A DNA stretch of 64,000 nucleotides, taken from NCBI GenBank assembly GCA_030615605.1, contig JAUWYY010000006.1, forward strand, positions 11,847-75,846, given 5' to 3'. This document shows positions 10,251 through 55,561 of this stretch, piece after piece (position 1 is the stretch's first letter; the number at the start of each line of letters is the position of its first letter). The position numbers and the translations under genes were made by a program. The notes beneath the pieces were generated by a model. The model saw nothing but the letters and a program-made list of their open reading frames with translations, did not search any database and was not told the DNA's origin. This stretch comes from a bacterium. GTDB taxonomy: Bacteria; Armatimonadota; Zipacnadia; Zipacnadales; Zipacnadaceae.

Positions 10251-10332
10251 GCGAAAACGATAGAGGCTTGTTCATCTATTCTCTGACAGGCGAGCTGCCT
10301 GTCCTACTGGGAACTGATGTTAGCTGATTGAT

Positions 10333-29311: not shown

Positions 29312-31054
29312 TCACGCCTGCGGGGCTTGTTCTATCTGTATGCCCTGGAGATGCACATTCGCGGAGGCTTCGGCGCTGGAGATGCGGATGGTGTGCCAGC
29401 CGGGGACCTGGGTTGAGATGGTGAGATGGTCCGGGCTGATCAGCGTTTTCCCCTCCAGAGTAATTTGCAGGGTGACGCTTGCGCTCGACGGGTCAGCCCG
29501 GCAGCTTACCTGCCACATTCCGGCAGGCAGATAGACAGGCACGGCTACGCTATCTCCGGCAGCCAGCGAGATTTCTTCGCGGCGCACCGGCCCTTCCCGA
29601 GGTGATGCGGAGAGCGTGCTTTGCTCCAGATCTAAGGCGCCGGCGTTTATCTCCAGCGGCTGCTGGCCCAGATAGTCCGCGACGATCTGCTGGTAAGCAG
29701 CGAGAAAGTCAGCCGGCTGGGGATTCTCTCCGGGAGTGTTGTCGAAGACCTGGGCCAGGAGTTGAGGTCCGTGCGCCGCCAATACCCACAGGCAAGAGCC
29801 AGTGAAGTAGTCCATAGCCTGCGCAGACTTGGCCGCCAGCAGTGGCGAGTTGGGCTTTTCGCGCAGCCACAGATCCAGGGCTGAGCGGCACTGGTCATCC
29901 AGGAAGTTGACCATCTTGGTGCCATCGCCGCCGATCACTGCCTCCAGGGCTTTGACAGTTTTCTCGGTTGGCCAGGGTTCGTCGGTGACGAGCTCGGCCT
30001 CTGCGGCCAGCCATTGCAAAAACAGCCCCTCACCCAAGCGGCCGTTGCCCAGCTTCTCAGGTTCATTAAACTCGCTTACTGCCGGAAGCAGGTAGTGCCC
30101 CAGCTCGTGAGCGACCTCGCGCGCCCACTCGGCGGCGGTGCGGGGCTGGCCGATGTCGTAGAAATAGATGTTGTCGCGGTACAGTTCCGCACCGGCCGGG
30201 CCCATCTCGCAAAGATAGACATGCACCAGGCCCTCTTCATCCCCTATCGGCGGCCGGTTCAAGTAAGCTGTGGCATAGCTGGAGAAGCGCAGCAGGAGGT
30301 GCGTGATGGTCTGGGCCAGCTTGGAGTAGTCGTTGTCTGATTGGCTGATGGTGCGCGAGGGATACTGCACCACGAAGCGCAGGTCCAGCCGCTGGGAGTT
30401 GGGGCGCTTGACCAGCCCGTAGCAGACGCGGTTGACGGTGGCATATATCGGTGAGTCGCTGCCGGTGCTGGGGATCCGCACCTTCACAGCGGGATCGGTG
30501 CGGCCCATCTCCTCAGGGAATACCAGCGAGGTCGTGTAAGCAAAGTCATGTCGGGCTACGGCCCCAGGCTGGTCCTGGTTTGGCAGCCTGGTTTGACAGG
30601 TATCCACCACTGTGGAGATGGGGCTGAATTTGAGGTAATCGAGCTGGAGCCAGCGGGGAAAGTGAGCCTCGTAGAAGAGATGATGTATATGAAGTTGCGC
30701 AAAGCTGTGATTTGGCGCCAGCTCCAAGGCATGTCCGTAGCTATCAACAGCTTGCTCAACCTCGCCACCTAGCTCGTGAAGATGCCCGAGAGTGGCATAC
30801 GTCTCCGCATAGGTCGGGTCGGCCTTCAATGCCGCCTGGAGCGTGGTGCGGGCCTCTTCATAGTTCACTTGCTCGATCAGTTGCCGGGCCTCTTCGACCA
30901 GAGTCACTGCCTCTGTGTGGTCGCTGAAGGCTGAGGTGGGCAATAGCCCCAATAGGGCCACCCCCAGCATAATCGCCGCCCAGCGCCAGGCTGTGGGGAT
31001 GTGGTGGGATGTTGTATGCTTGTGATTGCCTGAGGAGCTATTCATTAGTGGCAC
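29312..31054 (-). CDS. secreted TPR-repeat protein with HExxH zinc-metallopeptidase motif
   Basis: 580 aa; N-terminal hydrophobic signal (WRWAAIMLGVALLGLLPTSAFS), TPR-like region, and HELGHY (HExxH) at about aa 300 followed by an acidic region. 10-nt overlap with the upstream gene. Confidence 0.55.
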   Translation of the reverse strand: MPLMNSSSGNHKHTTSHHIPTAWRWAAIMLGVALLGLLPTSAFSDHTEAVTLVEEARQLIEQVNYEEARTTLQAALKADPTYAETYATLGHLHELGGEVEQAVDSYGHALELAPNHSFAQLHIHHLFYEAHFPRWLQLDYLKFSPISTVVDTCQTRLPNQDQPGAVARHDFAYTTSLVFPEEMGRTDPAVKVRIPSTGSDSPIYATVNRVCYGLVKRPNSQRLDLRFVVQYPSRTISQSDNDYSKLAQTITHLLLRFSSYATAYLNRPPIGDEEGLVHVYLCEMGPAGAELYRDNIYFYDIGQPRTAAEWAREVAHELGHYLLPAVSEFNEPEKLGNGRLGEGLFLQWLAAEAELVTDEPWPTEKTVKALEAVIGGDGTKMVNFLDDQCRSALDLWLREKPNSPLLAAKSAQAMDYFTGSCLWVLAAHGPQLLAQVFDNTPGENPQPADFLAAYQQIVADYLGQQPLEINAGALDLEQSTLSASPREGPVRREEISLAAGDSVAVPVYLPAGMWQVSCRADPSSASVTLQITLEGKTLISPDHLTISTQVPGWHTIRISSAEASANVHLQGIQIEQAPQA

Positions 31055-32004
31055 TCAATCAAGTCGCGCAGTTGGTCGGCCAGTTCGTAGTTTGCTGCAT
31101 CGAGCAGAGCATGGACTACGAAGATCTTGTTAGTTGCTTCGCAGTGCCAGGCGTGGCCCAGCAGCTTGTACGGGGCTTGTCGGCCGATTAGGTGAAGTGC
31201 GAACCGCTTGAGGCCCTGCAGGGGTGGCATACGGGTGCCGGCGAAGATTACCGCCTCGTGGCCGCGAAATTGGGTCTCGTCCGATGTCGGTTTGTAGCTC
31301 TTTAGCTCCTTACCCAATTCTCGCTGAAGCCACTGGTCCAGCGTTTGGTCCCGCAGGAGGGTGTCGGCCATCCCCCAGCGACCCACTTCTATGGTTTCGG
31401 TGTCCCGTGTGAAGGAGAACTTCAGCAGAGCCGAGTACAGTTGCTGCCCGGTGAGCGTGAAGTCCTCAGGTATCTGGCAGACAAAGTCGTAGGCAGCCCA
31501 GGTTGTCCAGCCGTCGGTGGGGTGGTCAGTTATACTGCGGATTACGCGTTGCGCAGTATCGAGCAAACCATCCTCCTGGGGCCGCCCCAGGACCTGGGCG
31601 ATGACAGTCTGGTCGCATTGCTTGCACACCCAAACTGCACCATACGCCTGCTGCTGCTGGGCATGCCAGGCGAAGGTAGCAAGGCTGTCTTTTTTCATCT
31701 GGCGCTTGCTGACGACGCGGATATCGCGGTCAACCGAAAACTGGTCGTCGTCGGCTTTATGAGCCTTTTTGACCGTCTGCAAGTATTTGTCAACGGTCTT
31801 TTCCAAATCCACGAAGCCTGGTGATGCCATCCACTTGATCTCGAGCCTGGCCATATCGCGATCATCAATACGCAGATACCCTTCTTTTTCGTCGGCTGAT
31901 ATTGAAGCAAGCGCCCAATCCTGGGGGACCCGTGCTGTAATTCCCGCCCAACCGATCAGGCGTTGATTCTGGTCTTTATCGCTCATTGTCTCTCCGGTAT
32001 TCAA
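31045..32004 (-). CDS. hypothetical cytoplasmic protein (319 aa), co-oriented and tightly linked to ftsW/rodA
   Basis: Complete ORF with no recognisable motif. 10-bp gap to upstream ftsW/rodA and 10-nt overlap with the downstream metalloprotease gene. Confidence 0.45.
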   Translation of the reverse strand: MNTGETMSDKDQNQRLIGWAGITARVPQDWALASISADEKEGYLRIDDRDMARLEIKWMASPGFVDLEKTVDKYLQTVKKAHKADDDQFSVDRDIRVVSKRQMKKDSLATFAWHAQQQQAYGAVWVCKQCDQTVIAQVLGRPQEDGLLDTAQRVIRSITDHPTDGWTTWAAYDFVCQIPEDFTLTGQQLYSALLKFSFTRDTETIEVGRWGMADTLLRDQTLDQWLQRELGKELKSYKPTSDETQFRGHEAVIFAGTRMPPLQGLKRFALHLIGRQAPYKLLGHAWHCEATNKIFVVHALLDAANYELADQLRDLIECH

Positions 32005-33132: not shown

Positions 33133-33231
33133 GGTTACTCACTGCAGTTTAGTATAGCAGAAACTGACGGGGACGCGAAGGTTTGTCAATCTTGGCAGAG
33201 CGGGTATACTTACTGATGAGATTGTGATTCT

Positions 33232-33759
33232 GTGAAAGTGGCGGTCGTTTTGGTGGTGAGAACTTCGCTTCTCTTCGCAACCAACTGGGGCTGGTGGGGG
33301 GTGGAGGCCAGTTCGCGCGGAATTGTCCAGGTTGTGCTGCCGCAGCGCAACCCCCATCAGGTCCGCAAGCAGTTGGGCAGTCTGGAAAGCGCGGCCAGTC
33401 GCCTGGCCGAGAAGGCAGCCCGGCAGATCCAGGAATATCTGTATGGCCGGCGCCGGCACTTCACTGTGGCAGTTGATTGGGAACTTATGTCGAGCTTTGC
33501 GCGTGAAATACTTGAGGCCTGTGCTCAAATCCCCTACGGAGAGACGGTCAGCTACTCCGAGCTGGCCCGCCGGGCTGGTAAGAAAGGAGCCGCACGGGCA
33601 GCAGGCCAGGCGTTGGCGGCGAATCCAGTGCCGATATTGGTGCCATGCCACCGGGTAGTCGGCGCCGACGGCAGCCTCGGCGGCTTCTCGGGAGGATTGG
33701 CGATGAAGCGTCGGCTGCTGGAACTCGAAGGCAGGTGGCCTCTGGCAGACTCTGGTTGA
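33232..33759 (+). CDS. ogt: methylated-DNA--protein-cysteine methyltransferase
   Basis: Active-site motif PCHRVV plus the C-terminal helix-turn-helix; GTG start assumed. Confidence 0.75.
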   Translation: MKVAVVLVVRTSLLFATNWGWWGVEASSRGIVQVVLPQRNPHQVRKQLGSLESAASRLAEKAARQIQEYLYGRRRHFTVAVDWELMSSFAREILEACAQIPYGETVSYSELARRAGKKGAARAAGQALAANPVPILVPCHRVVGADGSLGGFSGGLAMKRRLLELEGRWPLADSG

Positions 33760-33972
33760 GCCAGTTGACTTCTGCGGCGGGTTGTTGTACAATTACGCAA
33801 AATAGTTGCAGCATGTTCGTAGCTTCCGAAAGATTGACCGGCCTGGTGTTAAGGCATAGGGCTAGACCTGGCCAGCCGGGAGTGGCCGGAGACCCATCAT
33901 TGGCACAGTGATTATGCAGTACACAATGCAGCATAACTTGAGCGACCCGCCCCATCTCCAGGAGGGAGAGTA

Positions 33973-36900
33973 ATGCTAATACGGCACCGCTCTTTTGCTA
34001 TCCTCGTCACAGTTCTGATTCTCGCTGCGAGTTTCACTATCGCTGGTACTCCGTCGGCCCATGCTGCCTCGATTAGCTTTGGGTACGGTGGTGATGGCGT
34101 CTGGCCGCAGACGGCCACGGCCAACTCCCAGCGTTGGTTCCGGGTTCACCTTCACTGGAATGCCACGCCCAACGATCAGGGCTTCCCCGCTGAGATAATT
34201 GACGGTTTGTATCTCTACGGCCCCTCCTACAGTTGGCGCCCAGCCGCACCCAGCGGTGTGTCGTTTGCGAGCGAATTGTACTCGGGCAGGGGCATATTTG
34301 ACGCAGGGACGCGATACGCGGTTCCGGGCGAGATTCGGTTAACCGTCGTAGCCTCACCTACGAAAGTGTATTACGTCCCTGCCCCGGGTACCTCGTACTC
34401 TCCCGGGGAGATGGCCGGCTGGCTGCTGACAATTACCAGCGGGCTGGGCATCGGTAATACGTATAATATCGTGGGCAATGACGCTGATGGCGGTGGCACC
34501 TATCTTACTCTGTCCGGGGGTACCCCTCTGGATCCCGAGGTATGCGCGGACCTGGAGGTTACAAGCAACCCCACCACTACCAGAGTCTACTACGATCCGG
34601 TTGTCATAGCCAGCTATTATCCCGATGACACACTGGGAGGGTTAATATTAAGGTTTACCGAGGGCGAAGCGGCCGGCCAAGAATTTGATATCGTTGGTAA
34701 CGGCTCCAATCCCTTCGGATACTACATAGACGTAAGCGAGGATACGGAATTTCCCGCCGAGCTGATGCAGGAGGGCGACGTTGATAGTATTGATTCCACG
34801 ACTCAGTTCTCTTACAGCGGCGTCGATTTTGGTGAAGCGGCGCTGATTGGCTATACGCTCGTCGTTACCAGTGGGACAGCTCTGGGCGAGGAGCGGATGA
34901 TCTCCTATAATACGGACACCTACATTCAGACCACCACAACTCTGCCTACTGGGTTCGCTGCTGCCGACACCTTCGCCATTAAGGACATAATGAACGTCTG
35001 TGATACCGCCGAGGTGGAGAACTTGCTGGCTGGCAACGACCAGCGCGTCCATTTCGGCGTGGTCCGGAACGTTAAAGAAGCTTCCACCGGCAACAATCCC
35101 AAGGTCGTTTTCACCGTCGGCCCGTTCTCCAACTACCACGATGACTACCTGGTGGGCTGGATACCGACCACGCTCCCTGTCCCGGCACTTACCAATTTTA
35201 TGTTCGTTCTGAATTACAGCACGCGGAAAACCGAGGGCGGAGTCACATTCTATGAGGCTGAGGAACCCATAGAGTTCGAGGGCACGCACGTTACCGTGCC
35301 GGTGGCGCGCCGCTTCCCCATTCAGCCCGTAGAGGAACTTTCGGAGTGTGGCGAGCTGCAGGCGTGGTATTCCGGTGTGGGGACCGGAGTTGACCCCTTG
35401 GTGACTGCCCGGTCGGCAGCGGGCGGCCCGACCGACCCGGATAACGGCTCCGGCAGCGATGAGTACGCCTTCCGCATCAGGTATTTCAGCGGGCTCATTG
35501 GTCCTGGGGGTCAGTTCTGGCCGGAACTGCGCAGTCATTGGTGGCGGTATACTACGCCCTTCCAGGAATTCGGCGACGAGGGCGTTCGCGGTGGCTGCCG
35601 TTACGCCCGCTTCGACCGGTTTGGCGACGGCGTAATGACGAGTTGGGGAAACAATACTGCGGCGTGGCAGCATAATCAGAAGCGTGAGTTTCCCGATTGG
35701 CTGCCCCTTGGTTACGAGGATCGCCAGGTGTTCAGTCCTCACGACGACCCGTATTTCGATATGACGGGCGACTATATCGACTTGGCGGGCCACGACCCGA
35801 CGGCTCTTCTGGTAGTCGATGGCGACTACGACCGACCCCATTTTATGGTTCCGGAGAGCGGGAGCACCCTGCGGGACGGCATTGTCTACAAGTACACCGT
35901 ACGCCCTACCAACTACCTGCAATTGTTCCACAACATCTTCACGCTGCAGTTTGATACACCCCACTACGATGCCTGGGACACTGCCTATATGAACCTGACC
36001 GGCGAGCCGACGAGTAACGCCTATGTCAGTATGCGCCCGGGCGGGCATACCTACGAGTTCCTGACCTGCCGCGACTGGGAGCCACCGGTCTGGGGGGTGG
36101 GTGGGGCCGGTGAATATGACGTGGGTAACTTCGCCCACGCCGGCCCGTGCTCGCTGGCCCTGCGGGGGCAGCCGGGGTACAACATAGAGGCAGTCCACGT
36201 GGTCAACGATTATTGGGACGCTGCTTGGTACCCCTCTATTAATCTTGCCGTCAATCTGGAGACGGTTGAGATGTGGTATGAAGATGCTGAGCCGGGCGGA
36301 TACGGCTACCCCTACGACAGCCAGGATCCCACTCAGTACCCGAAGATTGATCCAGTGCTGACAGCCCATCCTTACTTCGAGGACGGTCTGCTCAGTGCGG
36401 CCGAGCGGGGCTTCATCTGGCCCAATTACTACTTGGAAGACCTCGGGCCCCACTCACCCGGGTCATTGCCTAACCCCTTCAACTATAACCCGACGACTGA
36501 GCCGTGGGGACCGTTGGCAGGCCCCACATACCCGACGCCTGTGTATGGCGGGTATAATCCGGGCAATCCCCTTGACCCGACGGCGAAGGCCATCTCACCG
36601 TTCCGCTTCACCAACGAGGACACGATCTGGCCCAACTACGTCAATATCCACGAGGAGCTCCATCCGACCATGCCCTTCCGGGGCGGCAAGTGGATGACCG
36701 ATACGACCTTCGTCTTCCGGATCAACTACTGGCAGTCCGACAACCTGGAGCCGACCTCCATGCAGCTATGGCTCCGTAAAACCGACGAAGACGGCACCCC
36801 TATAGGCGACTGGACCAGGAAGGCGATGACTAAGGTCTACCCCGCCGACATCACCTATACCGATGGCGTTCTGTATTACTATGAGTGGGACGCCGCCGAC

Positions 36901-39900
36901 CTGCCGAGCGGAGGCGGGATCGGCGACTACCAGTATTCCTTCCGGGCCAGCGACGGCACGCACATCGCGATCTATCCGAACCGGCCCGCCAATGACCCGG
37001 GTTACATCGGCGTGCCGCCGGGCGACAACGATTATTACTGGTTCCGGGTCAACACGCCACCCGAATTGAGTGATGAGTCGATCACGGAGTTGGTAGCAAC
37101 GGCGGCCGAGCCGCCGCAAGGCGACTTCCGCTGGGATGTTACCTACACCGACGACGACGGTGAGGTGCGCAATGCCGGCCGCCTGGGCGACCGACCATTC
37201 AAGAGCATCCTGTGGATAGACCTGTTCGGCGATGTTGAAGGCCAGGCCGAAGTGGTCTCGGTGGCCGTCAATGTCATCACTTACGAAGTGGACGGCGGCG
37301 GCGGTGACCCGTATGCGGCTGGCTCGCTCGTGGGTCTGCAGGTGTTAATGGAGAGCGGCACGGCAGAGGGAGAGCACTTTGATATCACTGCCAACACCGT
37401 CTCCGGGAGTCAGGGGACGATAACCTGTACCGGTCTGAGCGGCGTCGCGGCGACCGACGAGTTCGATATAGTGGACTGGTTCCTCGCCAAAATGGATGAA
37501 ACGGATCCGGCGGACACCAACCACCGTGACGGGAAGGAGTACGATATTGACACCGTCCGGCTGGGCTTCCAGTTGACTCCCGGTGCCCACCTGTACTACT
37601 ACGAGTTCTGGGATAACTGGGTCTACTGGATAGACTGGCAGCAGTATTTCATGACCTCGGATCCCGATCCGATTGACCAGAAAGTCGAAGGCGAGATAGT
37701 CCGGCTGCCCGCGACGGGATACCTTGAGACCCCCTACACGCCACCGGCACCACCGGCCTATTCCATATCGGGCACGGTGTACGACACCGACGGGACAACG
37801 CCGCTGGAGGGTGCTACGCTCAAGTGTTATGATGGCGCGTTCGTAGACCCTGATGACCTGGTTGACGAGCAGACTACTGGCGTCAGCGGCACCTATGAAT
37901 TCGAGGACCTCCCTGACGACGATTATCGCGTCATACCGAGCTACGACTCAGAGTTCTTCGATCCTACTGATGAAGATGTGACGGTGTCGGGGGCTGACGA
38001 AACCGGTGTGGACTTCCAACTGGTAGCGACCTCCTCAATATCGGGCACTGTTTACGATATCGGAGGCAGCGACCCGCTGGAGGGGGCCACTCTCAAGTGT
38101 TATCGTACTCCCTACGCGGATCCCGCGGATCTGGTTGACGAGCAGGATAGCGTCGCGGATGGCACCTACGAATTCGAAGGTCTAGTCGACGACGACTACC
38201 GCGTGATCCCGAGCTACGGTGGCTATGACTTCGACCCCACTCAGACAGATGTGACGGTGTCGGGGGCTGACGAGACCGGCGTGGACTTCGAGTTGCAACC
38301 CGGTGACTGGAGCATCTCCGGAACCATTCTCGATACCGGCAGTGACCCCGTCGAGGGTGTCACCGTTAGCACAACGGGTGCCTCGGATGAAACTGATTCA
38401 TCCGGCGACTACTTGATAGGCAATCTGCCCAATGACGACTATACCCTGACGGCGACCGCGTCGGTCGGGCAGTACTACACCTTCGCGCCGGATGGCTGGA
38501 GCCAGCCGGTTACCATCTCTGGTGCTGACCGGACGAATATCGACTTCGAAGCCACCGAACAGACCTTCAGCGTGAGCGGGACGGTCCTTGACTACGAGGA
38601 CAATCCCGTAAGTGGCATTGTGGTCACCGATGGGACGAACTCAGACACGACTATTGGCGATGGGACCTACACGATCACGGGCGTATCAGCGGGCCTGGTT
38701 ACGATCACGGCCCAGCCGGGCGGGGGCTTTGTATTCGTGCCCCAGAATCAAGATGTCACGGTGCCGGCGCCGGGACCCAGTGATGTAACGGATGTTGACT
38801 TCACTGGTTATGCGGGAGTCGGGCACAGCTACTCGGCCGGTCTGCACCTTGTCGGGGTGCCGCTCTATCCCATTGAGGGCTATGCCGAGGATGTCTTCCT
38901 GACCTCCGACATCTGGTGGTGGCATCCCAGCGGTACGGTCTACATAGGCACTGGCCACCCCAATGCCGCCTCGCTGCTGCAGGTGCAGCCCGCTATGGGC
39001 TTCTTCGTCAACTACGGCAGCGCCACCGACATCAACGTAGCGGGTACTACGGTACCCACTGGCGTGCCGTTCGTGAAGAATCTGGGGCCAGCCTGGAATA
39101 TGATCGCCAATCCGTTTGACGGCTATGAATTACCCATAGCCAACATACAGCCTGACACCGGCCAGCAGATTCTGCCGTTCGCTTACATCTACGATTCATC
39201 GAGCGGCTCTTACCTGGTGATCACTGATCAGCCGGGCATTGGCGTAGCCCGCAACTACATAGACGAATGGGAGGGCGCATGGCTGTATGCCTGTAGCAGC
39301 ACTGGCTTCACTGTCGAGATGACTGCCGGGCCGGCAGTTGCCGCAGCCGCTGCTGAAGATGCGGTAAGCCCGCAGGCGCTTGAAACCGGCCAATCGGGCT
39401 GGGTAGTGCCGGTGCTGGCCCATGTAGGCAATCGCAGTGACCTGATGGGCGCGATTGGCATCAGCAGCATTGAGCCCTACAGTCTGCCCAATCCGCCGGC
39501 AGCGCGGAACAGCGTAGATCTCTACTTTATGGGCGCCGATGGCAGCCAGTTGGCGCAGTCAGTTCTTACGCCGACCGGCGATACAGCTAGCTGGGAGTTT
39601 GTAATTGCTACCGACATCCCGGATAGTGAGGTAGAGGTAGCTCTGCCCGACCTCAGCCAGCTTCCCAATGATCTGATTGTGACTCTGACCGATCTTGACG
39701 CTGATCGCTCGGTATACGCCCGCACGATGCCGAGTTACAGCTTCCGCAGCGGCGAGGATGGCGGTGTCCGTCACTTCCGCATTGAGGTCGCGCCGCAGCA
39801 GGCTGGTGGATTGGCGATTACCACTGCGACAGCGCAGCCCGGTGGCGCCGGTGCGGTGATAACCTATGGAGTCAGCCAGGCCTGTAATGTCACCGTGGAA

Positions 39901-40101
39901 GTTATGAATATCTCCGGGCAGGTCATCAAGACATTGGCCATTGATGAAATAGCCGGCGCGGGTACTCATACGTTGTCGTGGAACCTGCGCAGCAACAGTG
40001 GTACAGTGGTGCCCCGCGGGATGTACCTGGTCAGGATAGAGGCTGCGGCTGAGAACGGGCAGCGCACCAGCAGGCTGTGTCAACTGAACGTAAATAGATG
40101 A
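33973..40101 (+). CDS. giant secreted surface protein (2042 aa) with carboxypeptidase-regulatory-like repeats and FlgD-Ig/T9SS-like C-terminal domain
   Basis: ATG with GGAGGG RBS. Cleavable signal peptide (..ASFTIAGTPSAHAAS). At least 4 CarboxypepD_reg-like beta-sandwich repeats (S(I)SGTVYD..G..LEGATLK..) in aa ~1265-1560. C-terminal ~75 aa match the FlgD-Ig-like / por-secretion-type sorting domain pattern (VTVEVMNISGQVIKTL...GTHTLSWNL...G..VPRGMYLVRIEA). Confidence 0.8.
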   Translation: MLIRHRSFAILVTVLILAASFTIAGTPSAHAASISFGYGGDGVWPQTATANSQRWFRVHLHWNATPNDQGFPAEIIDGLYLYGPSYSWRPAAPSGVSFASELYSGRGIFDAGTRYAVPGEIRLTVVASPTKVYYVPAPGTSYSPGEMAGWLLTITSGLGIGNTYNIVGNDADGGGTYLTLSGGTPLDPEVCADLEVTSNPTTTRVYYDPVVIASYYPDDTLGGLILRFTEGEAAGQEFDIVGNGSNPFGYYIDVSEDTEFPAELMQEGDVDSIDSTTQFSYSGVDFGEAALIGYTLVVTSGTALGEERMISYNTDTYIQTTTTLPTGFAAADTFAIKDIMNVCDTAEVENLLAGNDQRVHFGVVRNVKEASTGNNPKVVFTVGPFSNYHDDYLVGWIPTTLPVPALTNFMFVLNYSTRKTEGGVTFYEAEEPIEFEGTHVTVPVARRFPIQPVEELSECGELQAWYSGVGTGVDPLVTARSAAGGPTDPDNGSGSDEYAFRIRYFSGLIGPGGQFWPELRSHWWRYTTPFQEFGDEGVRGGCRYARFDRFGDGVMTSWGNNTAAWQHNQKREFPDWLPLGYEDRQVFSPHDDPYFDMTGDYIDLAGHDPTALLVVDGDYDRPHFMVPESGSTLRDGIVYKYTVRPTNYLQLFHNIFTLQFDTPHYDAWDTAYMNLTGEPTSNAYVSMRPGGHTYEFLTCRDWEPPVWGVGGAGEYDVGNFAHAGPCSLALRGQPGYNIEAVHVVNDYWDAAWYPSINLAVNLETVEMWYEDAEPGGYGYPYDSQDPTQYPKIDPVLTAHPYFEDGLLSAAERGFIWPNYYLEDLGPHSPGSLPNPFNYNPTTEPWGPLAGPTYPTPVYGGYNPGNPLDPTAKAISPFRFTNEDTIWPNYVNIHEELHPTMPFRGGKWMTDTTFVFRINYWQSDNLEPTSMQLWLRKTDEDGTPIGDWTRKAMTKVYPADITYTDGVLYYYEWDAADLPSGGGIGDYQYSFRASDGTHIAIYPNRPANDPGYIGVPPGDNDYYWFRVNTPPELSDESITELVATAAEPPQGDFRWDVTYTDDDGEVRNAGRLGDRPFKSILWIDLFGDVEGQAEVVSVAVNVITYEVDGGGGDPYAAGSLVGLQVLMESGTAEGEHFDITANTVSGSQGTITCTGLSGVAATDEFDIVDWFLAKMDETDPADTNHRDGKEYDIDTVRLGFQLTPGAHLYYYEFWDNWVYWIDWQQYFMTSDPDPIDQKVEGEIVRLPATGYLETPYTPPAPPAYSISGTVYDTDGTTPLEGATLKCYDGAFVDPDDLVDEQTTGVSGTYEFEDLPDDDYRVIPSYDSEFFDPTDEDVTVSGADETGVDFQLVATSSISGTVYDIGGSDPLEGATLKCYRTPYADPADLVDEQDSVADGTYEFEGLVDDDYRVIPSYGGYDFDPTQTDVTVSGADETGVDFELQPGDWSISGTILDTGSDPVEGVTVSTTGASDETDSSGDYLIGNLPNDDYTLTATASVGQYYTFAPDGWSQPVTISGADRTNIDFEATEQTFSVSGTVLDYEDNPVSGIVVTDGTNSDTTIGDGTYTITGVSAGLVTITAQPGGGFVFVPQNQDVTVPAPGPSDVTDVDFTGYAGVGHSYSAGLHLVGVPLYPIEGYAEDVFLTSDIWWWHPSGTVYIGTGHPNAASLLQVQPAMGFFVNYGSATDINVAGTTVPTGVPFVKNLGPAWNMIANPFDGYELPIANIQPDTGQQILPFAYIYDSSSGSYLVITDQPGIGVARNYIDEWEGAWLYACSSTGFTVEMTAGPAVAAAAAEDAVSPQALETGQSGWVVPVLAHVGNRSDLMGAIGISSIEPYSLPNPPAARNSVDLYFMGADGSQLAQSVLTPTGDTASWEFVIATDIPDSEVEVALPDLSQLPNDLIVTLTDLDADRSVYARTMPSYSFRSGEDGGVRHFRIEVAPQQAGGLAITTATAQPGGAGAVITYGVSQACNVTVEVMNISGQVIKTLAIDEIAGAGTHTLSWNLRSNSGTVVPRGMYLVRIEAAAENGQRTSRLCQLNVNR
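37759..38304 (+). repeat. 2 x ~273-bp imperfect tandem DNA repeat inside the giant gene (about 85% identity)
   Basis: Unit 1 at 37759-38031 and unit 2 at 38032-38304 encode two adjacent ~91-aa carboxypeptidase-regulatory-like domains with near-identical blocks (ATLKCY, YRVIPSY, DVTVSGADETGVDF). Confidence 0.8.
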
Positions 40102-40151
40102 TCACGCTATGACTGCCGAGTCATATTTGATCCAAGAGGGAGTATCGGTCA

Positions 40152-40532
40152 ATGCATAACAACAAACAATGGACCATTGTGGTTGTCATCGCAGCAGTTG
40201 CCCTGACTGGTTGGTTGATTGCCGGCTGTGGTGGAGGTGGGGGTGGGCCGGCGACCGGGGTAAGCGGTAGCACTGTGATAGTAGATAACGATCCGCCCGA
40301 GCCCGCTGGCGGGGTAACCGTTACTGTTGGTGGGCAGCAATCGGTTTCTAATGATGACGGCAACTTTACTGTCACCGGTGTGCCGGCGGGAACCTGGGAG
40401 GTTGTCGTAACCTCGGCTTTTTGGGTTCCAGTGGTCGAGCCGCCCGAGGTGGTGGTCGTGGCAGGTCAGATTACGACTCTGGGTGCTCCAATACTTATGA
40501 GCAGCTTTGGTCCTCCCCCGCCCCCCTTGTAG
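40152..40532 (+). CDS. small lipoprotein with Gly-rich linker and carboxypeptidase-regulatory-like domain
   Basis: 126 aa; AGAGGGA RBS; lipobox LIAGC followed by G8 linker; the domain (VTVGGQQSVSNDDGNFTVTGVPAGTWEVVVT) resembles the repeats of the adjacent giant protein; poly-Pro C-terminus. Confidence 0.55.
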   Translation: MHNNKQWTIVVVIAAVALTGWLIAGCGGGGGGPATGVSGSTVIVDNDPPEPAGGVTVTVGGQQSVSNDDGNFTVTGVPAGTWEVVVTSAFWVPVVEPPEVVVVAGQITTLGAPILMSSFGPPPPPL

Positions 40533-48408: not shown

Positions 48409-50250
48409 ATGTCTGATTATGTCACGGTGACCTTCGAGCCGGCAGGAGCAAAGGCGAAAGTTCCTGCCGGCACTAATCTATATGAAGCTGCCCAACAGGC
48501 GGGAGTTAAGATAAGCGGCTCCTGTGGCGGCCAGGGGACTTGTGGGAAGTGCCAGGTTCACGTTACTGGAGGTATGGTCAGTGAGCCTGCCCTGCAAGAG
48601 GTGGAGCTGTTGGGCGCCCCGCTTATCGAGCGGGGCACCCGCCTGGCCTGCCAGACCCAGTTGCTCGGTAACGCCGTCGTTCGCTTGCCCAGCGCGCAGG
48701 GGGCTGTTGTCCGCAAGGCTCTGCCGGCTGAATCGGTGCGTTCGGTGCCACTTGCCCCCAACGTCCGGCGTTACGACCTTAAGATCCCTGCCGCCAGGCT
48801 CGATGATCAACGCAGCGATTTTCAGAGGTTGGCCGAGGCAATAACTGAGCAGCCCGCCAACCTGACGGCCACGGTGCAATGTCTGCGTAGTTTAGCCACT
48901 GCGTTGCGAGCTGAGGATCAAGATGTCGCGATAACTGCGGTCGGCAGCCAGGTTGTGGACGTAAGACCGGCATTGGAGCGAGCGCCCTGCCTGGGCGTTG
49001 CTGTGGACATTGGTACCTCCACGCTGGCAGTATATCTGGTGGATCTAGAGACAGGGGAGCATCTCGTCACGGCCGCCGGGCAGAATCCTCAGACACAGTT
49101 CGGCGCCGATGTTATCTCACGCATCCAGTATGCCAATAGCCACCCCGACGGCCTGACTGTGCTACGGGATGATGTGCTGACCGCTATCAATCAGTTGATT
49201 CGCCAGGCCGTGGAAGAGGCGGGCGCTGCCCTGGCTGATGTCTATGAGGCAACGATAGTTGGCAACACCTGTATGCATCATATCTTTCTGGGCCTGGAGC
49301 CGCGATACTTAGCGGAAAGCCCCTACGTGCCTGTGACCACTGAAGCGGTCAGCACGTCTGCAGATCGGCTTGGTCTGCAGATGAACCCGCGAGGCAACGT
49401 TTTTTGCCTACCGTGCATAGCCGGGTTTGTGGGAGCTGACACTGTTGGTGTGATCGTTGCCAGTGAGCTGACGCGGCGGGACCGTCCCACCCTAGCGGTA
49501 GATATTGGGACTAATGGTGAAATAGCACTATGGTCTGGTGAGCGGCTGCTGACTACCTCGTGCGCAGCGGGTCCGGCCTTTGAAGGCGCTCAAATTCACC
49601 ACGGGATGAGAGCTGCTCCGGGCGCAATAGATGAAGTGTTTGTGAACGGCGATGACCTGGCAGTACATACAATTGATGACCAGCCCGCCCGGGGCATTTG
49701 CGGGTCGGGGCTTTTTGATGCTACGGCGGTGCTATTGGAACTGGGACTGATAGATACAAAGGGACATATGGTGGATGGCGGAAGCTGTGGGACTTTGTCC
49801 GACACCGTGGCGGGGCGTGTAGCGGGCGAAGCAAACGAACGGCGTGTAGTCCTGGCCGATGCCGAGCAAAGCGCGAACAATCCAATAGTGCTGACCCAGA
49901 GGGACGTCCGCGAGATACAACTGGCCAAGAGCGCGATTCGGGCATCAACAGAGATGTTGCTTGAGATAGTCGGCTTGAAGCCGGACGACCTGGACGAGGT
50001 GCTCATTGCTGGGGCCTTCGGCAACTTCATCAATCCTGCCAGCGCTCTACGGATGGGGTTGCTTCCTGAGGTACCAGAGGGTAGAATAGTGGGGATTGGC
50101 AATGCGGCCGGGGCTGGAGCAATCCTGACGCTGGTCTCACGGCATGAGCGTGACTATGCCAGGCAGGTGGCCGAGACGGCCGAGCACATTGAGTTGTTTC
50201 GCAGTTCCGACTTTCAGGACCGATTTGCCGAGTATATGATATTTCCATAA
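48409..50250 (+). CDS. RACo-like protein: N-terminal [2Fe-2S] ferredoxin domain + C-terminal ASKHA ATPase domain (COG3894/DUF4445-type reductive activator of corrinoid proteins)
   Basis: N-terminal plant-type ferredoxin (CGGQGTCGKC ... LAC). The remainder resembles acetate/sugar-kinase-fold corrinoid activation proteins (VAVDIGTSTLAVYLVDL; VDIGTNGEIAL). 613 aa, typical of RACo. Confidence 0.65.
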   Translation: MSDYVTVTFEPAGAKAKVPAGTNLYEAAQQAGVKISGSCGGQGTCGKCQVHVTGGMVSEPALQEVELLGAPLIERGTRLACQTQLLGNAVVRLPSAQGAVVRKALPAESVRSVPLAPNVRRYDLKIPAARLDDQRSDFQRLAEAITEQPANLTATVQCLRSLATALRAEDQDVAITAVGSQVVDVRPALERAPCLGVAVDIGTSTLAVYLVDLETGEHLVTAAGQNPQTQFGADVISRIQYANSHPDGLTVLRDDVLTAINQLIRQAVEEAGAALADVYEATIVGNTCMHHIFLGLEPRYLAESPYVPVTTEAVSTSADRLGLQMNPRGNVFCLPCIAGFVGADTVGVIVASELTRRDRPTLAVDIGTNGEIALWSGERLLTTSCAAGPAFEGAQIHHGMRAAPGAIDEVFVNGDDLAVHTIDDQPARGICGSGLFDATAVLLELGLIDTKGHMVDGGSCGTLSDTVAGRVAGEANERRVVLADAEQSANNPIVLTQRDVREIQLAKSAIRASTEMLLEIVGLKPDDLDEVLIAGAFGNFINPASALRMGLLPEVPEGRIVGIGNAAGAGAILTLVSRHERDYARQVAETAEHIELFRSSDFQDRFAEYMIFP

Positions 50251-51669: not shown

Positions 51670-53811
51670 GTGGCCCAACGCAGCAACGGTAAATATCTGC
51701 CTCTGGTAGCAGTTGCCATCCTGGCCGCGGTTACTGCTGGTTTTTGGGCCCCGTGCCTGTTCTTCGGTAGAGTTCCCGCCACCGTCCAGCATCAGAGCTG
51801 GATGGAGCCGTGGCGCGGAGCCGACGCGCCAGCACTGCCAGCCCGGCAGTGGGATCCGCTGCTGTGGGATAGTGTAGCGCAGTTCTATCCGTGGCGAGTG
51901 TTGTTGCGGCGAGGATTGTGCAGCGGCGAGCTGCCGCTGTGGTCTCCCTATCAGTACTGCGGATACCCCCTGGTGGGCAACGGGCAATCGGGAATATTCT
52001 ATCCTCCCAATTGGCTGCTGCTCATTTTGCCGGCAGCAAAGTTTCTGGGAGTTAGTCTGGCCCTGCATTTTTTCATCGTCAGCCTGCTGACCTTCTACTT
52101 CTGTCGCCTGCTGAGGCTGTCAGTCATCCCCGCGCTCTTTGCCGCCCTGGCCTTCTCATATGGCGGGTTTATGATAGCGTGGGCGTTGCTGCCGACATTG
52201 GTGGCCAGTGCGATATGGTTGCCGGGCGCGCTTGCTGGCATTGAACTGACTCAGCGCGGGCGACGGTGCAGGGGTATAGTGCTGCTGGCAGCAAGCCTGG
52301 GTCTGACTCTGCTGGCTGGACATATGCAGATTGCAGCCTATGTGTGGATGAGCGCCGGGGTATATGGCCTGGGCCGGATGCTGTACAATCTGTGGCACAA
52401 GCAATCAGCAGTCTGGTGGCCGATAGCTGCCGGTGCCGGACTGGGACTGATGGTGGGGATGGTGCAGATTCTGCCCACGGTTGAGCTGGGAGTGAATTCG
52501 CCCCGCGGCAGCCAGGTTCCCACCCAACAGGGCTGGCAGTTTCAGCAGCACCGCTCCCTGCGGCCTTTCGAGCTTCTCACCTTCGTTTCACCGGATGCGC
52601 TGGGCACACCGGCCAGCCGGTCGTCCGCCGACCAGTACTGGGGCACCAAATTCGGCATTGTCTACAGTGAGCACTGTGGATTTGCCGGCGTGGTGACGCT
52701 GCTTTTGGCCCTTGTAGCGGTCATCTATCGGCGCGACCGGATTAGCTGGGCCTTCGCTGCCGCTGCGGTTGTGGTGCTATCAGTGATTATGGGCGGGCCG
52801 TTGATGCACCTGCTTTACTTCTGGGTGCCCAAGATCGGGCTGATGGGCAGTTTCACGCGGCTGTTGTTCGTCTATATCTTTCTGGTGGCGGTGTTAGCAG
52901 CGGTGGGCCTGGATCATGTGATGGGCAGAATATCGCTCAATTCGCAGCTTCGCGGCGGCGTTTGTTATCTTCTCGGCGTAGCGTTCATTGCGGTGCTGCT
53001 GTTTGAGATTCTACCCTGGGGGCGACGCTTTATACCGATGCAGCCGGCTACTGATTTGTATCGGCCGACAGAGCTGACCCGTCAGATTCAAAAGTGGTGC
53101 GATCCGACTGAAGGGCGGGTGCTCGCGATCACGCCTCGTCGTGCCTGGAGCCTGCTGCATACGCCCAACGCTGTGCTGCCGCCCAATTCTGCTACTGTCT
53201 ATGGTTACTTAAGCCCCCAGGGCTACGATTCGCTGTCAATAGATGACTACTACGAGTTTGCCGCGAAGCTGGAACATGAGCCACCGGCGCCGGTGGAGAA
53301 CGGCAATATGATGTTGCTGGAGAACTACAATTCTCCATTGTTGGCAAGAACAGGGGTGAAATGGGTCGTGGCGATGGCGCCATTGCAGGTTCCTGAGCTA
53401 GCGATGATCTGGCACGGCGAAGGTACCTATCTGTATCGAGTCAAGGGCCCAAATCGGTTCCATGTGTTTGGCAGGGAAGGTAACCCGGTTGAACCTATTG
53501 CTGCGCGTACGGGTCTTAATTATGTGAAGTTGCGGCTGCCGCCCTCCTCCGCTGCCCGTGTGGTAGTAGCTCGCGACACGTGGTATCCGGGTTGGCACTA
53601 CTTTGTGGATGGGCGCCCGGCAGTTGCCCGCCAACATCTGGGAGTCTTCCGCCGACTGGAGCTTGCCGGCGGTGCTCAGTCCGTGCTTATGGTATACTAT
53701 CCGGCCACTGTACTGTGGGGACTGTTTGTGACGCTGGTCACGACTGGGGCGCTGGCAGCGGTGGCGAGCGGGTGTTGGATGACAGCGCGGATGAGTTGTT
53801 CACGGAGCTGA
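51670..53811 (+). CDS. YfhO-family polytopic membrane protein (GT-C-like glycosyltransferase candidate)
   Basis: 713 aa, >10 TM, N-terminal YfhO-like signature (WDSVAQFYPWRVLL...LPLWSPY..GYPL...QSGIFYPPNWL), large C-terminal extracytoplasmic domain. GTG start with GGAGGA RBS. Confidence 0.6.
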   Translation: MAQRSNGKYLPLVAVAILAAVTAGFWAPCLFFGRVPATVQHQSWMEPWRGADAPALPARQWDPLLWDSVAQFYPWRVLLRRGLCSGELPLWSPYQYCGYPLVGNGQSGIFYPPNWLLLILPAAKFLGVSLALHFFIVSLLTFYFCRLLRLSVIPALFAALAFSYGGFMIAWALLPTLVASAIWLPGALAGIELTQRGRRCRGIVLLAASLGLTLLAGHMQIAAYVWMSAGVYGLGRMLYNLWHKQSAVWWPIAAGAGLGLMVGMVQILPTVELGVNSPRGSQVPTQQGWQFQQHRSLRPFELLTFVSPDALGTPASRSSADQYWGTKFGIVYSEHCGFAGVVTLLLALVAVIYRRDRISWAFAAAAVVVLSVIMGGPLMHLLYFWVPKIGLMGSFTRLLFVYIFLVAVLAAVGLDHVMGRISLNSQLRGGVCYLLGVAFIAVLLFEILPWGRRFIPMQPATDLYRPTELTRQIQKWCDPTEGRVLAITPRRAWSLLHTPNAVLPPNSATVYGYLSPQGYDSLSIDDYYEFAAKLEHEPPAPVENGNMMLLENYNSPLLARTGVKWVVAMAPLQVPELAMIWHGEGTYLYRVKGPNRFHVFGREGNPVEPIAARTGLNYVKLRLPPSSAARVVVARDTWYPGWHYFVDGRPAVARQHLGVFRRLELAGGAQSVLMVYYPATVLWGLFVTLVTTGALAAVASGCWMTARMSCSRS

Positions 53812-53818: not shown

Positions 53819-55561
53819 TTGGACGAGACTATGCAGGCAGAAAAGCCAGGTAAAGTCAGCCGCAATGAGTGGTTGCTGGTACTGGGCATAGCCGCCGGCG
53901 TTATGATTCTGACGGTACTGCCATATGCCAGGGCCGTTCAGATGGCCGGCGCGGGCGAGTATTTTTGCGGTTTTCTGTGGGGGGTGGACGAGGGTAATGT
54001 CTACCTGGCCTGGCTGCGACAGGCCGCCGCAGGCCGGTGGTTGCTGGCAAATCAGTACACCATAGCCCCTCAGAACCCACACTTCTTCAATATCTTTCTA
54101 ATCCTGCTGGGTAGGTTCTCCGCCCTCACTGGCCTGGCGCCGATCGTGGTATTTCACCTGGCTCGCTTCCTGGGTGGGATGTTTCTGTTATGGGCATTTT
54201 ACCTGCTGGCGGCAGAGATAACCGCGAGCCGTAGAATCCGCCTGGCCGCGCTATTGATAGCAGCGCTATCGTCGGGTCTGGGGTGGATTGTCTATCTGCA
54301 GGCTAAAATGTCGGACCTGCCCCTGGGCGCATGGGACGGCCTTCGACCGATGGATGTAGCCTACGGCTGGCAGGCCCAGCCCGAGGCGGTGACCTTTCTG
54401 TCACTGCTGCTCAATCCGCTGTTTGTCACCTCAATGGGGCTGCTGTGTCTGGTATTCCGCTACGGGCTGCGGGCTGCGCGCGCCCTGGGGCTGCGCAATG
54501 CGGTCGTCAGTGGGATATTGCTGTTGATTCTGGGCAATGTTCACACCTATGATGTACTCATTGTCTATTTGGCCTTGTTTGCCTGGTTTATGTTGGTCGC
54601 TGTCCAGGGCGCAATCACATGGCGGATGGCGGCCAGCCGGTATGCGGTGATCGCCCTGTTGGGTCTGCCCGGGCCGCTGTGGGCCTACTATACGATGCAT
54701 CTCGATCCGGCCTACTCACAGAAGGCGGCCACTGTGACCCGATCGGCAACGCCCTGGGATTATGCCATAGGCTACGGCCTTGTTTTTCTGCTGGCGCTGG
54801 TCGGGACAGTTGTGATTATTCGCTTGCGTAGGACAGCCGCTGGTGAGGCGGGGGAAAAGTTCAACAGGGAGCTGCTCTTTCCGATAGTCTGGGCCGTTTT
54901 GGGCTTTGGGCTACTGTACTTGCCAGTGTCGTTTCAGCGCAAGCTCATCGAAGGGCTGCATCTGCCGCTGTGCCTTCTGGCAGCCGTTGCGCTGGTTGAG
55001 CTGCACCGGTGGCTGGCCGGCCGGGTCTCATTTACTCTGGTATTGGTTGTGTTTCTGCTAGTGACTGTGCCATCGAATGTGCTGTTCTTGGCGGATTGTT
55101 TTGATCACTTGGCTGTCAATAACGTGGACCTGCTGCGCTACCTGATGCCTCCGGCCTATCTATCGAAGGCTGAGAAGACAGCGTTGAACTGGCTGGAGGC
55201 TAATGCCCCGGACGGTGCAGTAGTGCTATCTTCTTCGCTGACGGGGAGTCACATTCCCGCACATACTCCGTGTCGGGTGGTGGCTGGGCACTGGGCCGAG
55301 ACGCTCAAATTCGGGGAGATGCTGCAATTGGTCGGCCATTTCTACTGGCCGGGCCGGGAGCCGTCGGTGCGCCGCCAGATCCTGCGCAGAACTGGCGCAG
55401 ATTTCGTCTACTACGGCCCCCAGGAACAGCTTCTTCAGCAGGGCATGGCGGCTGGAGGACAGTTTGCGCTGGAGGCACAGTGGGACCCCAGTGTTGGTCT
55501 GCGCGAGCTTGAAATCGCGTTTGTTGGTGATGGCTTGCGAATATACCGAGTAGACGACTGA
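53819..55561 (+). CDS. second polytopic membrane protein, GT-C/YfhO-like glycosyltransferase candidate
   Basis: 580 aa, about 12 TM, periplasmic C-terminal domain; starts 8 nt after the previous gene (TTG 53819 or ATG 53831). Confidence 0.45.
   Translation: MDETMQAEKPGKVSRNEWLLVLGIAAGVMILTVLPYARAVQMAGAGEYFCGFLWGVDEGNVYLAWLRQAAAGRWLLANQYTIAPQNPHFFNIFLILLGRFSALTGLAPIVVFHLARFLGGMFLLWAFYLLAAEITASRRIRLAALLIAALSSGLGWIVYLQAKMSDLPLGAWDGLRPMDVAYGWQAQPEAVTFLSLLLNPLFVTSMGLLCLVFRYGLRAARALGLRNAVVSGILLLILGNVHTYDVLIVYLALFAWFMLVAVQGAITWRMAASRYAVIALLGLPGPLWAYYTMHLDPAYSQKAATVTRSATPWDYAIGYGLVFLLALVGTVVIIRLRRTAAGEAGEKFNRELLFPIVWAVLGFGLLYLPVSFQRKLIEGLHLPLCLLAAVALVELHRWLAGRVSFTLVLVVFLLVTVPSNVLFLADCFDHLAVNNVDLLRYLMPPAYLSKAEKTALNWLEANAPDGAVVLSSSLTGSHIPAHTPCRVVAGHWAETLKFGEMLQLVGHFYWPGREPSVRRQILRRTGADFVYYGPQEQLLQQGMAAGGQFALEAQWDPSVGLRELEIAFVGDGLRIYRVDD

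Follow-up and report, generated by a model that had tools for sequence, protein, structure and literature searches.

In the 64-kb stretch of DNA analysed here (the window), which derives from an Armatimonadota (Ca. Zipacnadia/WS1) bacterium, a single gene encodes a giant protein that we favour, on balance, as a lineage-specific, non-enzymatic surface or envelope protein with a head-stalk-anchor architecture, displayed after Sec export. The protein comprises an orphan head of ~1230 aa, a stalk of four units and a C-terminal module of ~430 aa that ends in a FlgD-Ig-like sandwich. Zipacnadia are little-known sediment bacteria, known from metagenomes alone, and Armatimonadota are a lineage of the Bacillati (Terrabacteria). 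The construction and surface decoration of the cell envelope in Armatimonadota are, to our knowledge, almost uncharted; the giant with its small lipoprotein partner provides a concrete conserved pair in this phylum.

All features are given in window coordinates and lie on the + strand. The giant gene is an uninterrupted open reading frame (ORF) of 2042 aa (33973-40101, stop codon included), preceded by a strong Shine-Dalgarno sequence read from the sequence (AGGAGGG, 33960-33966, 6 nt 5′ of the ATG) and by a candidate sigma-70-like promoter (TTGACT-17-TACAAT, 33765..33793), which is located ~180 nt 5′ of the ATG and was recognized by a 10/12 consensus match alone. The translation begins with a predicted Sec signal peptide (aa 1-31, 33973..34065), MLIRHRSFAILVTVLILAASFTIAGTPSAHA followed by AS, which displays R4/R6 in the n-region, a hydrophobic core and an AHA motif at the predicted cleavage site between AHA and AS, as read by eye without a dedicated predictor; the N-terminus is conserved in the orthologues. 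An earlier reading of the same DNA, made from the sequence only, had proposed a secreted giant with a classical signal peptide, and the ORF and its translation bear this out. The mature chain has a mass of 218 kDa and a pI of 4.05, with few Cys residues and a high content of G, T, D, V and A, and its C-terminal tail is the sole basic part (pI 8.8).

The head opens with a conserved domain (aa 32-112, 34066..34308) carrying an ATANSQRWFRV motif, which is evident from invariant columns and short N-terminal hits and has no Pfam match. It is followed by three tandem copies of a beta-barrel domain, r1 (aa 113-188), r2 (aa 189-262) and r3 (aa 263-342), which together occupy 34309..34998, and a fourth copy, r4 (aa 1084-1175, 37222..37497), is located in a loop of the second of two Ig-like sandwiches. 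The repeats within the protein were located by a masked sliding-segment BLAST, and an HMM was built from 20 barrel copies of other proteins, with the window sequence and the N-terminal tandem copies excluded. In the window protein, this HMM recovered four domains and no more, at 17.7, 27.6, 19.4 and 69.6 bits, the top score among 50 shuffles being 3.5 bits, and pairwise BLAST connected r1 with r2 (E=3e-8) and r3 with r4 (E=1e-4). As judged from these comparisons, the four copies are genuinely homologous to one another. The sequence-only reading had described at least four repeats of ~35 aa in the N-terminal third, and the four motif occurrences that it quoted map to aa 149, 222, 293 and 1119. 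Four homologous copies are recovered by the independent HMM, but the unit is 75-90 aa long, with a period of ~73 aa in the tandem array, and only r1-r3 lie in the N-terminal third, the fourth being inserted in an Ig-like domain. In the family, r4 is found in every member, whereas the number of N-terminal barrels varies from 0 to 4, the tandem copies being missing from P0013, P0014, L006, L009, L011 and L013-L016; r1-r3 are an accessory cassette.

The barrel was modelled from a single-domain alignment, and the AlphaFold model of r4 (pLDDT 87.5, pTM 0.79) forms a closed barrel of six strands. This rules out the repeat as an already-described beta-helix or PKD variant, which had been named as an alternative identity. 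Searched against a viral structure library, the modelled barrel matches phage tail-fibre/tailspike-type barrels (TM 0.65-0.71, rmsd ~2 Å, 19-23% identity), and the N-terminal barrel of the F1/V1-ATPase alpha/beta subunits is matched at TM 0.50-0.57; therefore, the fold is not new. By sequence, no Pfam or PDB match was found for the domain, the top profile E value being 0.13 (PDB), and the lowest Pfam E value, 0.0097, came from one member and is not significant. The earlier claim of an unassigned, novel repeat thus stands for the sequence but not for the fold, and the barrel is a candidate for a new domain family, defined as a new sequence family. Its six-stranded closed fold is common to the phage and ATPase barrels, from which it differs in having no significant sequence kinship with them, in its tandem array and in its insertion into an Ig-like sandwich. 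The modelled barrel resembles receptor-binding proteins of the phage tail-fibre type, a likeness that would support the head-stalk-anchor reading.

A core of ~900 aa (aa 356-1260) is common to all family members. Its N-terminal half (aa 356-904, 35038..36684) has a high beta content and abundant aromatic residues, Pro and Gly, and is followed by sandwich A (aa 905-1005, FVFRINYWQSDN...GDYQYSFRASDG, 36685..36987; AlphaFold pLDDT 60-83) and by sandwich B (aa 1022-1250, 37036..37722; pLDDT 58-90), which is split by r4 and is assigned from its strand layout. The top-conserved motifs of the family, YYYEFWDNW and YWIDWQQ, are located in sandwich B, and sandwich A is the stretch of the giant most widely found outside the family; in P0026, the stretch matching it is called GEVED (PF20009). 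An AlphaFold model of the 905-aa core, calculated from 12 sequences, has a mean pLDDT of 50.7 and falls below 50 over most of aa 356-904. Foldseek matches of this model in the PDB, to Fabs and arrestin, are generic tandem-Ig matches with an rmsd of 14-25 Å and are uninformative; further matches, to a multi-modular xanthanase and to the T5 phage distal tail protein pb9, were likewise rejected. By eye, aa ~465-705 contain sandwich-type motifs (Y.F.V.Y ... G.H.Y.F..D) such as those seen in the modelled Ig-like domains.

As an alternative to a binding head, a surface-displayed enzyme, for example a degrader of polysaccharide or protein, would have its catalytic domain in aa 356-904, the most conserved part of the protein, which at a pLDDT below 50 could hide an unrecognized catalytic fold. 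Invariant D, S and H are present among the conserved core columns, and the literature portrays Armatimonadota, these classes included, as organisms that break down complex carbon and possess extracellular CAZymes (PMC10290634; PMC11535203). An enzyme nevertheless appears improbable: searches of Pfam, NCBIfam and PDB sequences with aa 1-1260, either as a single sequence or as a profile, yielded nothing at E<=1-10, most of the invariant columns consist of G, P and the aromatic residues W, Y and F, and the motifs of aa ~465-705, read by eye, are of the sandwich type. A 27-residue match of the core profile to an anaerobic sulfatase-maturating enzyme in the PDB (E=0.33) was attributed to chance. 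The lack of an enzyme-family match and the character of the invariant residues would both be in keeping with a non-enzymatic head, and the orphan 900-aa core is itself a candidate for a new domain family.

The stalk consists of four CarboxypepD_reg (transthyretin-like) units (aa 1261-1610, 37753..38802), which are matched by PF13620 in four stretches at 107.5 bits (gathering score 32.3), in agreement with the tandem CarboxypepD_reg-like central region proposed from the sequence; SpaA- and SdrD_B-type matches are also present in these units. The first two units represent a tandem duplication of 273 nt (DNA repeat 37754-38299; 72% identity in self-BLAST). In fibrillar adhesins, Ig-like or transthyretin-like domains are repeated to form a stalk, which is combined with a binding region at the distal end and an anchor to the cell (PMC8877628), and the giant is similar to these adhesins in its head-stalk-anchor layout, its stalk of the CarboxypepD_reg/SpaA/SdrD_B type and its acidic extracellular character. 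In contrast to these proteins, whose tips are variable and whose genes are patchy accessory genes, the giant has a conserved 900-aa orphan core as its head and is encoded by a syntenic orthologue conserved class-wide, and no known adhesive domain was found in aa 1-1260 with Pfam and NCBIfam. The stalk of a fibrillar adhesin is thus present in the giant, and its cell anchor is presumed. If the giant is in the end an ordinary adhesin, better annotation would be all that is gained.

The C-terminal module begins with aa 1611-1950 (38803..39822), which yielded no match in Pfam, NCBIfam or the PDB and is conserved in all giants and in a second, otherwise unrelated giant of 2136 aa (L011:5507-11914), whose own head has no Pfam match. 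The C-terminal ~650 aa are common to the two proteins at 34-38% identity and, since they also end an unrelated giant, constitute a shared cassette of stalk and presumed anchor. This reusable cassette is a testable candidate for surface display or anchoring outside Bacteroidota. The module ends in a FlgD-Ig-like tail with an invariant terminal Arg (aa 1951-2042, 39823..40101 including the stop codon; PF13860 32.9-35.9 bits), in which FlgD_ig scores 32.9 bits over aa 1957-2025 of the window protein (gathering score 27) and is matched by all 10 tails of the family (best E=5.6e-10). Both PF13620 and PF13860, which the sequence-only reading had singled out for a domain search, therefore score above their gathering thresholds.

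That reading had also called the tail T9SS-like, and a genuine T9SS type-A cargo, with a C-terminal domain (CTD) recognized by the T9SS for export and surface attachment, would share several features with the giant. Like the type-A cargo of Bacteroidota (gingipains and the Tannerella proteins TfsA/TfsB), the giant has a Sec signal, a large multi-domain passenger and an Ig-like sandwich of ~90 aa at the extreme C-terminus, here closing on an invariant basic residue. The borderline match to TIGR04183 (cutoff 23) has a score of 23.9 bits when the whole protein is searched and of 27.3 bits for its C-terminal 440 aa. Nine of the 10 tails in the family are matched by this model at E<=1, and PorU and PorZ were weakly matched through their C-terminal domains. 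However, Pfam Por_Secre_tail (PF18962) scores 12.3 bits against a cutoff of 27, and FlgD is the better match: the tail reaches FlgD (7eh9) in the PDB at E=1.7e-8 and PorU at E=0.1, and a related fragment carries the NCBI name “FlgD immunoglobulin-like domain containing protein.” The FlgD-Ig part of the earlier claim is thus retained, whereas its T9SS-like part depends on one borderline TIGR04183 match.

The setting of the tail also bears on the T9SS reading. No T9SS component was detected among the 20 larger ORFs scanned in the 64-kb window, the strings gldK, gldN, porV, sprA and “type IX” are absent from 13 supplementary files of PMC10290634, and the T9SS has been described as limited to Bacteroidetes (PMC11611037), whereas the host belongs to Armatimonadota. 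Nothing was found in the literature on PF13860 with T9SS or on C-terminal secretion through FlgD Ig-like domains. In the window and 16 related loci (~340 kb), an HMM of the tail identified only the giants and the one unrelated neighbouring giant L011:5507-11914, which in this small sample is few tail-bearing proteins for a general sorting signal; most of the homologues retrieved with a profile of the tail were fragments of 66-160 aa, which are uninformative on cargo diversity. In addition, the tail of the giant is part of a larger conserved module of ~430 aa, and its conserved partner is a 126-aa lipoprotein, where type-A cargo has PorV, PorU or A-LPS. The T9SS reading of the tail is accordingly weak, and we regard the giant as an improbable T9SS cargo. 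For annotation, a borderline TIGR04183 match in a phylum without a known T9SS should not be taken as evidence for a T9SS.

The lipoprotein gene (40152-40532) is located 50 nt downstream of the giant gene, and no terminator-like site was found in this gap; therefore, the two genes are probably co-transcribed. It encodes a signal peptide ending in LIAG followed by C, a Gly-rich linker, a CarboxypepD_reg-like sandwich and a PPPPP tail, which confirms the 126-aa lipoprotein with a Gly linker and a related domain that had been read from the sequence, although the Pfam score for CarboxypepD_reg (28.4 bits) is below the cutoff of 32.3. The lipobox context, GWLIAG before CGGGGGG, fits the pattern [LVI][ASTVI][GAS]C by eye, without a dedicated predictor, and the Gly-Cys of the lipobox and the first three linker Gly residues are invariant in eight of eight lipoprotein sequences. 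An NCBIfam match to “lipo-invert” (18.7 bits against a cutoff of 37) was ascribed to the membrane helix and the Gly stretch. An HMM of the lipoprotein family matches the stalk units of the giants at E values of 1e-6 to 1e-16. Besides the window, the lipoprotein directly follows the orthologous giant on the 3′ side in 12 of the 13 related loci whose sequence extends past the giant gene, the one locus without it being L015, and the giants at these lipoprotein-bearing loci have diverged to ~36-40% identity. The pairing proposed earlier is thus borne out by gene order, the lipoprotein is strongly supported as the cognate partner of the giant, and it probably anchors it.

A giant surface protein with a small dedicated gene immediately downstream is also characteristic of Flavobacterium type-B CTD proteins, which have a cognate PorP/SprF-like gene in this position. 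PorP-like anchoring has been described for type-B CTDs, which are sometimes labelled as FlgD_ig superfamily (PMC11611037), a superfamily to which the tail of the giant also belongs. The Zipacnadia pair differs in its phylum and in its partner, where a lipoprotein carrying a single transthyretin-like sandwich takes the place of an outer-membrane beta-barrel; no homology between this lipoprotein and PorP or SprF was found.

Under the favoured head-stalk-anchor reading, the giant would first be exported by Sec, after which its C-terminal module would serve as a surface-attachment or sorting cassette. The lipid-anchored lipoprotein would be the membrane receptor or anchor of this module, probably through a sandwich-to-sandwich contact, while the stalk would hold the head off the cell. 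The head may act by binding rather than catalysis, with a substrate, neighbouring cells or, in self-assembly into a layer, the protein itself as its target. Armatimonadota probably have an outer membrane, which the giant would cross by a route other than the canonical T9SS of Bacteroidetes; flagellar L and P rings have been reported for Zipacnadia (PMC10290634). A bolder and rather doubtful proposal is that the ~430-aa module, the FlgD-Ig-like tail and the lipoprotein form a previously undescribed, T9SS-independent sorting and anchoring system for Armatimonadota giants. If such anchoring is real, the FlgD_ig-type C-terminal tails that annotation pipelines report for a phylum outside Bacteroidota would be the signature of a distinct anchoring pathway.

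The giant family is represented by 46 matches among 1.84 billion representative proteins and is confined to Armatimonadota (Ca. Zipacnadia/WS1) MAGs, with 15 loci; a word-indexed homologue search returned four clusters with aa 1-1250 and three with a profile of 11 core sequences. Such a distribution bears on a further alternative, in which the giant is the protomer of an S-layer or sheath, a self-assembled lattice on the outer membrane with the lipoprotein as its lattice anchor, a logic comparable to that of Tannerella TfsA/TfsB. Fifteen species-level genomes of the class carry the giant, with one orthologue per locus, and its head sequence is kept over class-level divergence, unlike that of fast-evolving adhesins; the low pI, scarcity of Cys, residue composition and strong ribosome-binding site of the giant point in the same direction. 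Conversely, no SLH or other S-layer anchoring or lattice family was detected at E<=1 in Pfam and NCBIfam, and the orthologues range from 2000 to 3400 aa with a strongly varying domain count, a variability uncommon among lattice protomers. An S-layer protomer is hence possible but doubtful, and the head-stalk-anchor protein is retained as the favoured reading. The giant locus has a native GC content and is flanked by housekeeping genes, with ftsW/rodA on its 5′ side and gmk, coaBC, metK and priA on its 3′ side; this housekeeping synteny is kept in at least two genomes, and synteny is maintained in the genome carrying a 75%-identical orthologue.

An uninterrupted ORF (33973–40101, + strand) encodes the 2042-aa giant protein, and the ORF of the 126-aa lipoprotein (40152–40532, + strand) begins 50 nt behind it. 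The giant gene is preceded by a strong Shine-Dalgarno sequence (AGGAGGG, 33960–33966) and by a candidate promoter-like site of the consensus type (33765–33793); no terminator-like site was seen in the 50-nt gap, and the two genes therefore probably form a single transcription unit. The GC content across the giant gene (0.58–0.60) is in line with that of the remainder of the window. As the sequence-only reading had proposed, the protein starts with a classical signal peptide; it is of the textbook Sec type, and cleavage is predicted after residue 31 (AHA↓AS). The mature product (218 kDa) is acidic (pI 4.05), and only its tail is basic (pI 8.8), with an invariant Arg at the end. The CarboxypepD_reg and C-terminal FlgD-Ig domains claimed in the same reading were recovered with Pfam as four CarboxypepD_reg units at aa ~1261–1610 (107.5 bits) and FlgD_ig at aa 1957–2025 (32.9 bits; gathering score, 27), while aa 1–1260 and 1611–1950 gave no Pfam match at E ≤ 1. 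CarboxypepD_reg units 1 and 2 (72% amino-acid identity) correspond to a 273-nt tandem duplication (37754–38299; 71–87% DNA identity), which is older than the split from a 75%-identical orthologue, since it is also present there.

The four motif instances noted earlier (aa 149, 222, 293 and 1119) do mark four repeat copies, but their supposed length of ~35 aa did not hold: masked sliding-segment BLAST gave a unit of ~73 aa (aa 130–198 versus 203–272, E = 3e-8; aa 283–338 versus 1111–1168, E = 1e-4). To avoid circularity, an HMM was made only from copies in proteins other than the window protein, 20 in all; in the window protein it detected exactly four copies, at aa 120–180 (17.7 bits), 193–244 (27.6 bits), 269–337 (19.4 bits) and 1088–1168 (69.6 bits), against a top score of 3.5 bits in 50 shuffled controls; an iterated HMM found 1–6 copies per family protein. 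The three N-terminal copies behave as an indel cassette, being entirely absent in many orthologues and numbering four in some. Copy 4 was modelled with AlphaFold from a 35-row alignment as a six-stranded closed β-barrel (pLDDT 87.5, pTM 0.79), placed in a larger model between the halves of an Ig-like sandwich (aa 1022–1083 and 1188–1245). Among PDB structures, copy 4 comes closest in fold to the N-terminal barrels of F1/V1-ATPase α/β subunits (TM 0.50–0.57, E 0.01–0.05), and better matches were obtained in a viral structure library (TM 0.65–0.71, rmsd ~2 Å, 19–23% identity, E down to 4e-4), comprising tail-fibre, tail, peptidase S74 and pectate-lyase-type phage proteins. No sequence relative of the repeat was found in Pfam or PDB, in agreement with its earlier description as unassigned; together with the matches to known folds, this indicates that the domain represents a new sequence family whose predicted fold is old.

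A word-indexed search of 5.8 billion proteins yielded four clusters related to the giant, and exhaustive HMMER against 1.84 billion representatives yielded only 46 proteins at E ≤ 0.001, including ~12 full-length relatives. When one genome was scanned for each species, 15 family loci were located, and every one lies in a metagenome-assembled genome (MAG) that bears the label Candidatus Zipacnadia, Armatimonadota/Armatimonadia or candidate division WS1; the class Zipacnadia, within Armatimonadota, was described from sediments of the Guaymas Basin and the Bohai Sea (PMC10290634). In one Zipacnadia MAG, the orthologous gene (L012:4019–11122) is divided among three ORFs that overlap (803, 1324 and 325 aa), reflecting either a pseudogene or assembly frameshifts. 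Family proteins measure 2000–3400 aa at 35–85% identity and share a ~900-aa core (aa 356–1260 in the window protein). Gly, Pro, Trp, Tyr and Phe account for most of the invariant columns of this core, and its profile has no match in PDB; the head is an orphan family. Modelling of the core gave Ig-like sandwiches in its second half (aa 905–1250; pLDDT 60–90) and no usable fold in its first half (aa 356–904; pLDDT < 50). By eye, aa ~465–705 carry the signature of the modelled sandwiches (DNGSGS..Y.F.V.Y ... VVDG....M ... G.VY.Y ... GGH.YEF..D) with long insertions, and we therefore think that the core may consist mostly of decorated sandwiches; that aa 356–904 instead conceal an enzyme seems quite improbable. 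Ig-like sandwich A of the giant (aa 905–1005) recurs in proteins of ~2600–2750 aa with cytochrome c7 and right-handed β-helix domains (P0026, aa 991–1076; P0030, aa 1668–1754), and the overlapping stretch of P0026 is assigned to GEVED (PF20009) by Pfam.

The C-terminal ~650 aa, composed of the CarboxypepD_reg units, an unassigned stretch of 340 aa and the FlgD_ig tail, are shared at 34–38% identity with a second giant of 2136 aa encoded next to the first (L011:5507–11914, + strand). The 1450-aa head of this protein has no Pfam match and does not align with that of the giant, and, as judged by eye from the N-terminal sequences, a homologue directly follows the giant in another locus (ORF start, L015:16077); by its sequence, the second giant appears to be another orphan family. 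Because proteins with unrelated heads end alike, the stalk and C-terminal module constitute a portable cassette, as expected for an attachment or sorting device.

That this device is a sorting domain which makes the giant a T9SS-type cargo, as a tail described earlier as T9SS-like would imply, is in our view very unlikely. The Sec signal, the position of the FlgD_ig-type domain at the extreme C-terminus and a borderline NCBIfam match to the T9SS type-A sorting domain (TIGR04183, 23.9 to 27.3 bits; 23.9 bits versus a cutoff of 23) are in its favor. However, Pfam Por_Secre_tail scores only 12.3 bits versus 27, the best solved relative of the tail is FlgD (E = 1.7e-8; PorU C-terminal domain, E = 0.1), and a related fragment is named FlgD immunoglobulin-like domain protein by NCBI. 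The 20 larger window ORFs scanned, among them SMC, FtsW/RodA, Gmk, CoaBC, MetK, PriA, PmbA/TldD, RACo, TPR or HEAT proteins and three Proton_antipo_M proteins (NADH:quinone oxidoreductase/Mrp-antiporter membrane subunits), include no T9SS component, and T9SS is limited to Bacteroidetes according to a review (PMC11611037). The study of Zipacnadia genomes reports flagella that have L and P rings as well as type II secretion, though no T9SS, and the strings gldK, gldN, porV, sprA and "type IX" were not found in its 13 supplementary files (PMC10290634). The architecture would work like that of T9SS-anchored surface proteins or a fibrillar adhesin, yet beyond the borderline HMM score no defining feature of T9SS membership was seen in the window.

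In the lipoprotein, a signal peptide with the lipobox LIAG↓C is followed by a Gly-rich linker and then by a CarboxypepD_reg-like domain that scores below threshold; the C-terminus is Pro-rich. Lipoprotein aa 3–73 (40152–40370) also give a weak match, below threshold, to NCBIfam NF058595 (18.7 bits versus 37; "lipo-invert putative C-terminal anchoring domain"), for which the membrane helix and the Gly-rich stretch are probably responsible. The suggestion that the lipoprotein is a paired partner is borne out at the gene level: a lipoprotein HMM placed it directly 3′ of the giant gene in 12 related loci (named loci: L002, L003, L004, L005, L006, L007, L009, L011, L012, L013 and L016; L003 and L001 are the same stretch of contig JAUVXR010000009.1), in the same order as in the window. 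Among related loci that keep downstream DNA, it is absent only in L015. The Gly-Cys of the lipobox does not vary, nor do the linker's first three Gly, and the pairing persists where the giants are only ~36–40% identical, which argues for joint selection on the pair. Type-B CTD proteins and their cognate PorP/SprF genes are similarly paired, although the partner here is a different kind of protein. In six related loci, the lipoprotein gene is followed by a gene for a ~400-aa secreted PQQ_2/BamB-like β-propeller (L005:20557, L007:13886, L009:17480, L011:22519, L013:17926 and L016:9007; Pfam PQQ_2, E = 1e-45 in L011); in the window, gmk occupies this position and the β-propeller gene is missing from it.

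We consider it somewhat probable that the giant is exported by Sec and held at the surface through its C-terminal attachment or sorting cassette, for which the lipid-anchored small protein would serve as membrane receptor by contacting the tail; the four transthyretin-like units would form a stalk, and the orphan head, with its sandwiches and tail-fibre-like barrels, would act by binding rather than catalysis. A T9SS-independent anchoring system formed by the C-terminal module and the lipoprotein is a speculative and rather unlikely proposal. Class-wide orthology, conserved synteny and the highly conserved head lean toward a structural role in the envelope, for example as S-layer or sheath, over a fast-evolving adhesin, but as a separate reading such a role is rather unlikely.

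Elsewhere in the window, a 1404-aa ORF (58456–62670, − strand) matches only DUF6079 in Pfam (E = 9.5e-14), and two adjacent ORFs (51670–53811, + strand, 713 aa; 53819–55561, + strand, 580 aa) have no Pfam match at E ≤ 1e-5. The ORFs flanking ftsW/rodA (31045–32004, − strand, 318 aa; 33139–33792, − strand, 216 aa) also lack a Pfam match, and in the related genome of L001 a 325-aa gene occupies the position equivalent to that of the 318-aa ORF. The three Proton_antipo_M ORFs and a RACo-type corrinoid activation protein lie at 6502–11850 and 48409–50250; the Wood-Ljungdahl pathway has been reported in Zipacnadia MAGs (PMC10290634).
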